This document shows positions 3,301 to 9,877 of a stretch of 64,000 nucleotides of DNA, piece by piece. The notes beneath the pieces are model-generated. The model did not search any database. It was not told the DNA's origin and saw only the letters and a program-made list of their open reading frames with translations. Numbering within the stretch: the stretch's first letter is position 1; every line of letters starts with the position of its first letter. The position numbers were made by a program, and so were the translations under genes. This stretch comes from a virus (Duplodnaviria > Caudoviricetes), in the IMG/VR virus record IMGVR_UViG_3300028914_000066, positions 28,970 through 92,969 of that record; one strand, 5' to 3'.

Positions 3301-6300
3301 CAAAAATGGCTTCATATGGATGTTTATAAGATGGCTGCTTATTATGTTTATCTTATGCGTCAAGGAGCTGTAGACCAGACTGTTAAAAATGCAATGTTTA
3401 CAACTGAAGATGGTCAGCATTGGTATTATATTCTTTACGATAATGATACTATTAATGGTTTGGATAACAATGGTGCATTAGCATTTGGATATAATATTGA
3501 TAGACAAACTATTGATCCTAGAACAGGTAATAGTTATTGTTATGCTGGTCATGATTCTGTTCTTTGGAATAATCTTGAAGCTGATGCTGATTTTATGGCA
3601 ATTGTTAAAATTGTAGACCAAGCTCTTTATAATGTAGGTCTTACATATGCAGCTGCTATAAATATGTATAATAATGAACAATCTAAGAAGTGGTCTGAAA
3701 GAATACATAATCTTGATTCTCAGTATAAGTATCTTGATCCTTGGCTTAATGATAATAACTCAGTAGGTCTTCCTAAACTTCAAGGTGCTCGTGATACTCA
3801 TCGTCAATGGTGGTTATCTAACAGATTTGCATTATATGATGCAATTAATGTTACAGGTGCTTATAAAGCTAATGTATTCCTTGTACGTGTATCTTCTGTT
3901 ACATTACCTGCTCCTGTAAATGCTTATATAACTCCTGCTAGAACAGGTCAAGTTTATGGTTATGGTAAAGGTGGTGTACCTATAGTTGCTGGTGTAATTG
4001 GAACTGTTGATGTTCCTATTGCTATGCAAATTAGCGATGAACTTTATGTTGGTGCATCATTAGATTTCTATAATGCTGTATTTGCTAAGAAGATTGATAT
4101 TTCTGCTATATCTCAATATCTTACTGAAATTCATCTTGAGGCTATTAATTCAGAAGCTTTTGATTCTTCACTTGAAGAATTGATTTTAGGTACTGAAATT
4201 TCTGAAGTAAATGTTAATGCTTTAACACAATTAACTAATTTAGGTAAAGCTAAATATTTAAAGAAACTTGGTATTTGCAACTTTAATGGTCTTGTAAGTA
4301 TTGATTTATCACAAAATAATTATCTTGAAGAATTAGATGCTCGTGGGTGTGCTAATTTAACTAATATAGTATTTCCTGATGCAGCACCTATTAGTGCATT
4401 ATATTTGCCTGCTAATTTACAACGACTCGCCCTTAAAGAGATAACAACATTACAAACTTTAAGTTTAGTAAATAATGGTGAAACTATTACAAATATTGAT
4501 ATTCGTAATTGTAATATTGCTGGATTTACAGATGCACCTACTAAACTTTTTGCTTGGATGAATGCTAGAGGTGATGTTCAAGGTCAATTAGATGTTTATG
4601 TAGATAATATTAATTGGAATAATATAGATCCTGATGATATTATTGAGTTTGGTCAATATGTTAAATCTAAAGGTTATCTTACATTAAAAGGTAGATGTGT
4701 TCTTTCTAGTTTAACTCTTGAACAAGTTGATAGTTTAAGAGAAGTATTTGGTAATAATTGTTTTGATGCTGATGCTTCACTTAGATTTATTGCTACAGGT
4801 ATATTCTTTACAGGTCCTGATGATATACTTTCTGATGGTCAATATCAATATGCTGTTGTAAATGCTACTGGTGCACAAGGTACTATTACATATTCTATTA
4901 CTCAATCTGCTAGTATTACAGGATTAACTATTAGTAATCAAGGTTTACTTACTGTTCCTGAAGTAACAGGTAGTGATAAAAATATTACAATTCGTGCTAC
5001 TTTTGAGGATGCAACAACAGGTGATATTACTAATGAAACAATGAATATTGTTGTAAGAAAACGTGTATATCCTGCAAATGCTACTATTAATGGTCCTGCT
5101 AGAGTTGAAAGTAGAGAAACATATAATTGGTCTACAACTACAACAGGTATTAATACAAATGATAAAATGTATGCAGAATGGACTTTAACAGGTGATATTA
5201 CTAATTCTGTTAGAATAGCATCTCAAAATTTACAATCTTGCATACTTGAATTATTTGGTAGTCCTATAAATGAAACTGGTACTTTAACATTAACATTAAA
5301 GAAAGTTGCTGATGATAGTACAATTCTAACTACAACTATGAATGTATCAGCTTTTAATAATTCTATTGCATTTACAAAAGAAACAGATCCTTATCTTGTA
5401 GAAGTAATGCATAGTAATTATAATGCTAATGGGGATCTTCTTTGTGCAAGTGCAGATTATATGACTAAAGCAGAATGTAATGCAGTTGTAAATGAAGATT
5501 TATATCAACATTTAACTCCTACACAAGCTAATAGTATATTTTATAACAATACTAATTTTAGAAATTATTGTACAAATTTAGATGCTTTAAAATATTTTAC
5601 TGGACTTACAGAAATACCAGATTATTGTTTTTATGCATGTAATATAATTGAAATAACAATACCAGAAAATATAGTAGTAATAGGCAATAATGCGTTAAAA
5701 TATTATAATACTGTAAATAATGAATCTTCTTATAAATTAAATAAATTAGAATTTATAGATAATATAAAACCTATTACAATAAATGGTTTAAATTTAAGAA
5801 TAAATTCAGATTTAATATTTACAAAACCTATAATTATTACACAATCAGCTGGTTTATGTTTTTGGAATAATAATAGAGATATTTTACGTACTGTAACATT
5901 CAATAAATTAAATATAAATAATGGTTCAGTATGTACTGGTGGTATTGGTAGTAGTGGAAGCTATTGGCTTACTAGTAATATAACATTAAAAGTTTTAGAA
6001 TCAGATTATATAAAACAAGAAAATTATGGTTGTTTTTATGCAAAAGATATAGAAATATATTTTGAATTATCAAATGATAATAATTATAAATATTTTGTTA
6101 ACGACATTTCAAATTTATTTTTTAAAGATACAACAATAATTCCAGATAGGGTTATAGCCAACGTAACTAATTTAGATGTAAATATTTATTGTGATAAGGA
6201 AATAAATTATATAGGAAACTATTATCTTTATGGCAAATTATATTTGCTTAATAATACAAGTGTTCCTCAAACTTGTAATTTAATTAATTCACGTCTTGGA

Positions 6301-7584: not shown

Positions 7585-7622
7585 TGATAGTCTGAAGATA
7601 GTAATATATCTTTGGACTATCA
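7585..7622 (+). terminator. Probable intrinsic terminator
   Basis: Inverted repeat tgatagtctgaagata / tatctttggactatca followed by tttatt, just after the stop at 7573. Confidence 0.7.
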
Positions 7623-8028: not shown

Positions 8029-8228
8029 CTGCTAATGAAGAGAAAGAACTACTTAGATTAACTAAAGAAAATAACTTTATGTTAAAACAAATGTATGGTT
8101 ATATTTCTCATCATATAGCAAATATTAATCAAGAGAATACGGATGACTTTATTAGAAATATTCTTGCTAATGTTATTTCTAACTCCCCTTTAAAAGGAAA
8201 TGATAACAATGGATTTAACAATAGATGA
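8025..8228 (+). CDS. Hypothetical protein
   Basis: 67 aa, ATGA-coupled to the previous gene. Confidence 0.65.
   Translation: MTANEEKELLRLTKENNFMLKQMYGYISHHIANINQENTDDFIRNILANVISNSPLKGNDNNGFNNR
8181..8200 (-). repeat. Dispersed motif copy 2 (C-orientation)
   Basis: aactcccctttaaaaggaaa; encodes NSPLKG. Confidence 0.75.
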
Positions 8229-8283: not shown

Positions 8284-8787
8284 ATGGAACTTAAACACAC
8301 TGTTTCTTTAATGCTTAGTTCTGATTATAAAGAACGTTTTATAGCAGAGTATCTTCAAGTTAAAATTAGATATGAAAAACTTATTGCTATGTGTAATAAG
8401 TGGGATGAAGGTAAACTTGAGTTTACACCTACTTGTCCTAGAAGTCTTTATGCTGACCAACTTGGATATATGCAAGCTTATATGTCAGTTCTTGAAGAAC
8501 GTGCTAAACTTGAAGGTATTGATTTATCTGAAGAAACTTTAGCTCATAGAACAGAGTATGTTCCTAGAGTTAAGGAATTTAGACAACTTGGTGATGAATT
8601 AATTCAATCTGTTAAAGAACTTCAACCTTCTAAAGAAGTTGAATTAAGTATAATTAAATTTCAAGAAGGTGTTATGTGGTTAGGTATGGAACTTAAACGT
8701 ATTAATGAACCTAATCCTTATCCTAATAGCAAAGATGCTAGCACAGGAAACGTTATTGATAAAACAGCTGATGGTTTAAAACTTTAA
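8284..8787 (+). CDS. crAss001_48-like domain fused to an Acb2/Tad1-like hairpin domain (candidate anti-defence sponge)
   Basis: Track ORF 8200..8787, likely start ATG 8284. N-half SSDYKERFIAEY…TPTCP…MQAYMSVLEERA; C-half SKEVELSIIKFQEGVMWLG resembles the Tad1/Acb2 'RExSLAITKLEEAxMWL' helix. Confidence 0.6.
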   Translation: MELKHTVSLMLSSDYKERFIAEYLQVKIRYEKLIAMCNKWDEGKLEFTPTCPRSLYADQLGYMQAYMSVLEERAKLEGIDLSEETLAHRTEYVPRVKEFRQLGDELIQSVKELQPSKEVELSIIKFQEGVMWLGMELKRINEPNPYPNSKDASTGNVIDKTADGLKL

Positions 8788-9235: not shown

Positions 9236-9599
9236 AGCTCTTTATAAAATAAGTTTGTATCTGCTAGAGAAGATACCAATGGTAACTGCGGTATTGTATC
9301 TAGCAGATACTATTTTATCCTATTTTACAGATAAAAGTAATGCAATTATTTCTCCTATATGTGGAATGTCATTACTTCCTATTATTTTCTTTTATGTTAC
9401 TTCTATAACATTTGGATTTTGTAAATGGCATAGAATGTTTATACATTATATTGTAGTCAATGAAGCATTAAGTTGGTATGATTATTATGTTGGTATTCCA
9501 TTAAATGCAGTTAATTTATTAATGTTAAACTTAATAATAGCAGGAATATTTTTGTTTTTAATAATATATTTCAAGTTTAGAGTATGCGTGAAGGATTAA
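9207..9599 (+). CDS. Hypothetical membrane protein (about four TM helices)
   Basis: Track ORF 9180..9599, likely start ATG 9207/9210. Hydrophobic segments and an FGFCKWHR motif. Confidence 0.7.
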   Translation: MMKEEKLIGKALYKISLYLLEKIPMVTAVLYLADTILSYFTDKSNAIISPICGMSLLPIIFFYVTSITFGFCKWHRMFIHYIVVNEALSWYDYYVGIPLNAVNLLMLNLIIAGIFLFLIIYFKFRVCVKD

Positions 9600-9877
9600 G
9601 AATGTTGTTAGTTAGAGAATTAAGAGAACTAGCTACAAATATAGAACTTGATAGATGTGAGGCAACAGATGAACAAGGTTTAGATGTATTAGATCTTCTT
9701 CGTCATAAACCTATGTATAAAGAACAATCATATGAATATCTTGGATTAGGTAGAAGTAGATTTGATGATTTAGTTCGTGATGGTATTCTACCAAAAGGTA
9801 GAAAAGATAAAGGTGGAAAACTTTATTGGTATAAAGATGAACTAGATAAAGCAATAAGAGATTATAAAGTAAAGTAA
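9584..9877 (+). CDS. Excisionase/AlpA-like helix-turn-helix DNA-binding protein
   Basis: KEQSYEYLGLGRSRFDDLVRDGILPKG…LYWYKDELD is an Xis/AlpA winged-HTH pattern. Confidence 0.75.
   Translation: MREGLRMLLVRELRELATNIELDRCEATDEQGLDVLDLLRHKPMYKEQSYEYLGLGRSRFDDLVRDGILPKGRKDKGGKLYWYKDELDKAIRDYKVK

Follow-up and report, generated by a model that had tools for sequence, protein, structure and literature searches.

We analysed a window of 64,000 nucleotides, taken from the right-hand end of a 92,969 bp IMG/VR virus record (98% complete) whose genome contains giant ORFs of the crAss-like phage type. The gene studied here lies between a 2263-aa tail-fibre-type gene and a set of small membrane proteins, and comprises one uninterrupted plus-strand frame encoding 167 amino acids (8284-8787), closed by the stop codon at 8785-8787. 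Two ATG codons lie in frame upstream of its start, at 8200 and 8209. The ATG at 8284 (MELKHT) is conserved, and MEL/MK.L forms the start of many homologues, including more distant ones and stand-alone Sequestins, but the sequence from the upstream ATGs to 8284 is unrelated between subclades. We therefore rejected the longer frames as likely starts, and consider the 167-aa product from 8284 to be the best reading. The features of the gene are collected in Table 1.

Table 1. Features of the two-module gene, in window coordinates
Feature	Position	Strand	Basis
CDS, two-module protein, 167 aa, stop included	8284..8787	+	ORF list and translation; start backed by homologue N-termini
Sequestin (PF21825 / crAss001_48) helical hairpin, residues 13-77	8320..8514	+	Pfam E 8.5e-20; AF2 helices 15-41 and 53-77
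Linker and start of helix 3, residues 78-93, variable among homologues	8515..8562	+	AF2 model; entropy by segment
Acb2/Tad1-type helical hairpin, residues 94-139	8563..8700	+	PF24729 E 1.4e-4; clade matches; AF2 helices
K117 codon, counterpart of the cA3-phosphate-binding Arg	8632..8634	+	Alignment to CmTad1
I124 codon, counterpart of the cA3-binding Thr	8653..8655	+	Residue counts in 148 representatives
Clade-specific conserved C-terminal tail, residues 140-167 (NEPNPYPNSKD...IDKTADGLKL)	8701..8784	+	Conservation; pLDDT 56-68

An AlphaFold2 (AF2) monomer model with a mean pLDDT of 87.9 contains two helical hairpins, formed by residues 15-41 and 53-77, and by residues 83-111 and 117-139. The PF21825 and PF24729 regions fall in separate halves of the protein, and other proteins contain either half by itself or joined to different partners. 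A preliminary description made from the sequence alone had given the same gene coordinates and proposed two separable halves, as is the case, and the peptide that it quoted for the second half from about position 8566 corresponds to residues 95-139 and begins at nucleotide 8566. PHROGs covered the N-terminal half only (phrog_774, unknown function), NCBIfam gave no match, and a single-sequence search of PDB sequences found nothing.

An annotation search gave no anti-defence label to the neighbouring genes, and a profile search of the genome found no other copy of either the Sequestin or the Acb2/Tad1 hairpin domain. Tad2 is likewise absent from the genome. We could not find any match to the locus among GenBank phages by megablast, and a scan for promoters and terminators returned signals at background level. 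In the consensus scan we noted a terminator-like hairpin with a 16-bp stem and a T-rich tail (7585-7622), which lies upstream of the block of small ORFs before the gene studied here. Downstream of this gene, a 97-aa ORF (9584-9877) that overlaps the final part of an ORF for a multi-pass membrane protein weakly matches HTH_17 / Xis-like proteins, below the cut-off (E 1.8e-4).

The N-terminal Sequestin hairpin

Residues 13-75 matched PF21825 (crAss001_48) with 70.9 bits (cut-off 24.8) and an E-value of 8.5e-20, across profile positions 1-60 of 61, and the same family scored 72.8 bits in the genome-wide search. The family has since been named Sequestin, and described as a dimeric 3'cADPR sponge that blocks type I Thoeris (bioRxiv 10.1101/2025.07.12.664507). 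It was discovered as the commonest unknown fusion partner of Tad2 (60 cases) and Acb4 (91 cases), and type I Thoeris was inhibited by 10 of the 13 members assayed; the purified protein depleted 3'cADPR and then released it intact. Models from the same study place two ligand pockets in an antiparallel dimer, lined by R8, E12, Q47 and R61, and the substitutions E12A, Q47A and R61A in SequestinA/B led to loss of activity (10.1101/2025.07.12.664507). A 2026 preprint additionally presents a Sequestin domain solved by crystallography and a functional Acb4-Sequestin fusion.

We aligned the N-terminal half with nine homologues and with T4 Y16O, a validated Sequestin that was located in T4 with the Pfam model. 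Four residues (R18, E22, Q59 and R73) were invariant, and are the counterparts of the pocket residues R7, E11, Q45 and R59 of T4 Y16O. The two helices of this half are modelled with a pLDDT of 95-98. Thus the window protein shares with SequestinA/B and T4 Y16O a full-length family match, a two-helix hairpin and the R/E/Q/R pocket, and in every feature that can be examined by sequence or by fold prediction its N-terminal half is a Sequestin. It differs from the known form, a stand-alone protein of 60-80 aa, in being fused to an Acb2/Tad1-type module. The preliminary description had called this half crAss001_48-like, had linked such domains with Tad2-like (DUF2829) genes, and had suggested that the domain binds another signal. 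The family assignment holds, the link agrees with the fusions through which Sequestin was found, the later literature bears out the suggestion of another signal, and the retention of all four pocket residues is consistent with binding of 3'cADPR.

The C-terminal hairpin and its tail-bearing clade

Although the C-terminal half of the window protein itself scores below the cut-off for PF24729 (21-22.4 bits for residues 94-133 against a cut-off of 27, E 1.4e-4 to 3.9e-4), its homology to this hairpin family is secure from the matches of its relatives. We searched 85 residues of the C-terminal part against 1.84 billion proteins at E<=1e-3, which recovered 503 clusters at 50% identity, and used the best 148 of these 503 as representatives for statistics on the clade. 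The C-terminal half (residues 94-167) is 50-66% identical to members of a large viral clade, and PF24729 was matched by 39 of 44 close relatives and, at E<=1e-3, by 120 of the 148 wider ones (best E 9e-12). A profile of the clade, compared with all PDB sequences, gave Tad1 proteins as its six best matches (CmTad1, 8KBB, E 5.3e-6; CbTad1, E 7e-3). The stretch aligned with CmTad1 is helix alpha2, which reads SRERSLAITKLQEGVMWLGM in the clade consensus and SKEVELSIIKFQEGVMWLGM in the window protein. The Acb2/Tad1-like hairpin proposed earlier for this half can thus be placed within a clade of such proteins. As a lead only, the nearest protein-atlas clusters were all viral Acb2/Tad1-hairpin proteins of 80-91 aa (scores 0.88-0.89).

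Comparisons of structure were less informative. Foldseek, which had been proposed as a check on the homology, ranked CmTad1 at positions 2, 3, 6 and 8, with an rmsd of 2.7-3.0 over 44-46 columns, but at non-significant E-values of 2-4 (2.2 for rank 2), and neither the whole model nor the C-terminal domain gave a significant match. A wide structural search with VIA-align returned generic helical hairpins only (Z < 8). Fold searches of this kind are not decisive for two-helix hairpins, and the check was uninformative. An hhalign comparison of the clade with T4 Acb2 alone was also weak (probability 19% over 15 columns).

The window protein is not a Tad1 proper. Its helix alpha2 is clearly homologous to that of Tad1 (CmTad1 8KBB; CbTad1 7UAV/7UAW), but the N-terminal beta-sheet domain is missing, and the Sequestin hairpin precedes the C-terminal hairpin in its place. 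The gcADPR pocket residues of CbTad1 (F82, N92, R109, R113) are not conserved, with V119, E136 and I140 at aligned positions of the window protein, which additionally carries a conserved C-terminal tail. With Acb2 (PaMx33 Acb2, 8H2J; T4 Vs.4; the 4,204-member set of Hadary et al. 2025) it shares the same Pfam hairpin family, and an RVKE motif around K97 that resembles the surroundings of Acb2 K26, in an alignment of helix alpha1 that is not itself significant. In contrast to Acb2, we found no clear counterpart of Y11, the tyrosine of the dinucleotide pocket, there being no N-terminal Tyr 15 residues upstream of K97, and the NPYP...TADGLKL tail is missing from both PaMx33 and T4 Acb2.

This tail, with the clade-wide signature NPYPxSKDPxxxxIEPTADGLKL, lies beyond the hairpin and is strongly conserved: Y146 was present in 148 of 148 representatives, and P145, P147, S149, T161, A162 and D163 were each present in more than 90%. 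In helix alpha1, K97, R100 and D104 are near-invariant, and together with M131, W132 and K138 make up the family-invariant residues of the hairpin. The tail is unstructured in monomer models (pLDDT 56-68). It may fold only in the oligomer, and a part in forming the pocket is plausible, since the C-terminal proline P90 of PaMx33 Acb2 contacts bound cGAMP.

We identified stand-alone forms of the module as phage proteins of 78-89 aa, for example in a 79-aa gene of the crAss-like phage cr111_1, and found the module also in Bacteroides phage BK735P4 and Tenacibaculum phage Gundel_1. Members of the tail-bearing clade are listed among the Acb2 homologues in Table S1 of Hadary et al. (10.1101/2025.08.24.671296). 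One homologue assayed in that study (no. 5 of Table S2, 97 aa) inhibited only the 3'3'-cGAMP CBASS of E. albertii among seven systems, and had no effect on three Thoeris types or two Pycsar systems, in a panel without a cA3 system (10.1101/2025.08.24.671296). Its alignment with the clade covers the hairpin as well as the tail (hhalign probability 99.3%, E 2.5e-20). Homologue no. 5 is a divergent member, in which the tail is altered and an internal insertion is present, and we therefore only infer that its function is shared by the clade. We additionally noted tandem forms, in which a tailed hairpin (NPYP...TAD) precedes a tail-less one (..EAKMWLGMELDRIR..) (P0162, P0186, P0201, P0209, P0236, P0243, P0252, P0255, P0260, P0263, P0266 and P0267).

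Putative interface and trinucleotide-pocket residues

The trimer-of-dimers interface of CmTad1 involves R88, T95, K96, Q98, E99, M102, W103 and K106. Five of these eight positions in the hexamer interface carry the same residue in the window protein (K96, Q98, E99, M102 and W103, corresponding to K125, Q127, E128, M131 and W132), and the remaining three positions have changed, from R to K, from T to I and from K to M. Of the changed residues, R88 and T95 of CmTad1 also hold the phosphates of cA3, and the same Arg/Thr pair is formed by R67 and T74 in Acb2 and by R90 and T97 in CbTad1. The substitution R67A abolishes cA3 binding by Acb2, and T4 Acb2, without the arginine, does not bind cA3.

The Arg/Thr pair that coordinates cyclic-trinucleotide phosphates in the cA3-binding subset of Acb2/Tad1 proteins is replaced by K117 and I124 in the window protein. 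Both residues are rare in the clade: among the 148 representatives, K occurs at position 117 in 3 and R in 115, and I occurs at position 124 in 3 and T in 119. The preliminary description had noted a lysine in place of the usual arginine of an 'RE' pair, and this lysine is K117, at the position of Acb2 R67, CmTad1 R88 and CbTad1 R90. Because the Arg/Thr pair has become Lys/Ile, the central cyclic-trinucleotide pocket of the C-terminal module is probably weakened or retuned.

We observed further variation around this dyad. The predicted trinucleotide-pocket positions 114, 115, 117, 120 and 124, within residues 114-124 (8623-8655), are among the most variable of the protein. Across 14 fused proteins at least 65% identical to the window protein, the dyad at 117/124 is RT, KT, RI, KI, KV or HD, and the other conserved polar residues of the C-terminal module stay fixed in these homologues. 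In stand-alone forms the R/T dyad is nearly fixed. The variability of the pocket could reflect either diversification of specificity or relaxed constraint.

Fusion partners and proposed function

The fusion of Sequestin to this hairpin recurs in about 40 clusters at 90% identity, from independent assemblies and down to 44% identity, indicating that the two-domain architecture is not an assembly artefact. Among the 148 representatives, the C-terminal module is joined to Sequestin in five clusters, to WDGH (PF25311) in two (100 bits in P0108), and to Tad2 (PF11195), an RyR domain (PF02026) and DUF1508 in one each. Recent work identified the phage RyR domain as a sponge for gcADPR (RyR Tad), so that the partners include three known sponge families. 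Neither WDGH nor DUF1508 is known as a sponge, and both are candidates by the guilt-by-fusion argument through which Sequestin itself came to light. Fused sponges described before are Acb4-Tad2 (Pasteurella phage Pm86), Acb4-Sequestin (Pseudomonas phage Ab09 gp59, and YH6) and Tad2-Sequestin. These resemble the window protein in combining two unrelated sponge modules in one polypeptide, covering Thoeris and CBASS, and differ in that their partners are Acb4 or Tad2, which are tetramers, rather than an Acb2/Tad1 hairpin, which is expected to be a hexamer. We found no report of the pairing of Sequestin with an Acb2/Tad1 hairpin in the literature searched.

From the domain identities, the conservation of residues and the modular distribution observed here, and by analogy with the characterised sponges, we infer oligomeric states, ligands and an anti-defence activity for the protein, and consider it to be a dual sponge of a crAss-like phage directed against Thoeris and CBASS in one polypeptide, with a probability of roughly 0.7. 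The N-terminal module would form an antiparallel Sequestin dimer, whose two interface pockets would sequester 3'cADPR (1''-3' gcADPR) and thereby keep the Thoeris effector ThsA off. The C-terminal module would form, via helix alpha2, a hexamer built as a trimer of dimers, and would sequester cyclic nucleotides of CBASS, for which dinucleotides of the 3'3'-cGAMP type are our best guess. In combination, a single polypeptide would blunt both defences, provided that a dimer-forming head and a hexamer-forming body are compatible in geometry. Several observations count against this reading: the PF24729 score of the protein itself is below the cut-off, no Foldseek match was significant, both cA3-binding residues are replaced, Acb2 Y11 has no clear counterpart, and homologue no. 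5 is divergent.

It is conceivable, and in our view unlikely, that only the Sequestin half is active, and that the C-terminal module is an oligomerisation scaffold without a ligand of its own, which hexamerises and so multiplies the 3'cADPR sites present locally. In favour of this, the residues of the hexamer interface are retained but the cA3 dyad has become K/I, and the high variability of pocket positions 114-124 in the crAss clade could reflect relaxed constraint. However, polar residues outside the interface (K97, R100, D104, K138 and Y146) and the entire tail are invariant in fused forms, the module also stands alone as phage proteins of 78-89 aa, and one member of the clade had anti-CBASS activity by itself. 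By a marginally less probable reading, both halves are sponges, but the signal bound by the C-terminal module is not a CBASS di- or trinucleotide. It would be a Thoeris signal derived from ADP-ribose, like that of Acb2_43, or else one of the cyclic oligoadenylates of type III CRISPR. Type I Thoeris is inhibited by ten Acb2 homologues, and 3'cADPR is bound by Acb2_43 via extra terminal strands; the clade studied here has an extra conserved tail with an invariant tyrosine, and a pocket dyad that departs from the cA3-binding consensus. Nonetheless, the sole assayed member of the clade blocked a cGAMP CBASS but no Thoeris (three types) or Pycsar (two systems), and a second site for 3'cADPR would repeat what the Sequestin half already provides.

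The position of the gene, after the tail-fibre-type gene, before small membrane proteins and among neighbours without anti-defence annotation, would also suit a small helical structural or regulatory protein of a virion or lysis gene block that is merely sponge-like. We consider this highly improbable, given the strong Sequestin match with all functional residues kept, the shuffling of both halves with other sponge families, and the presence of no other copy of either domain in the genome.

Each module comes from a known sponge family, and the fusion of sponges is itself well established, so that a dual sponge would not surprise a specialist. What is new is the pairing itself, its presence in crAss-like phages, and a little-characterised, tail-bearing hairpin clade with natural variants of the pocket. 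If the dual-sponge reading is true, a third architecture is added to the known fused sponges, and counter-defence against both Thoeris and CBASS is placed in human-gut crAss-like phages, a setting in which anti-defence genes have received little study. The clade of the C-terminal module, with its 503 clusters at 50% identity, is essentially uncharacterised beyond one screen hit, and its recurrent fusion to three known sponge families offers a simple route to nominate further candidates (WDGH and DUF1508, for example). Nearly identical proteins that differ naturally at the dyad (K/I, H/D or R/T) provide a ready series for the determinants of trinucleotide specificity.

More speculatively, and as an idea that we hold to be doubtful, the tail-bearing hairpin clade might be a general hexamerising chassis for heads that bind ADP-ribose signals (Sequestin, RyR Tad, Tad2, and perhaps WDGH and DUF1508). 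By such fusions the layout of Tad1 would be reconstituted, with six peripheral gcADPR sites and two central trinucleotide sites, and the central dyad might be diversifying in crAss-like phages. Such diversification, if true, could track the diversity of host signals, or evade decoy-based sensing of sponges.

Searches of GenBank phages by tblastn found the two halves separately, and no record with both in one place. Of the IMG/VR loci, L055 appeared to have both domains by tblastn and is in fact a stand-alone Sequestin. L016 was also rejected as an instance of the same architecture, as its Sequestin has another C-terminal partner, an unassigned domain of about 100 aa (5001-5815 of a 38-kb phage contig). 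An Acb4 gene (PF13876, 77.5 bits) follows directly after this fusion, forming with it a small anti-signalling islet.
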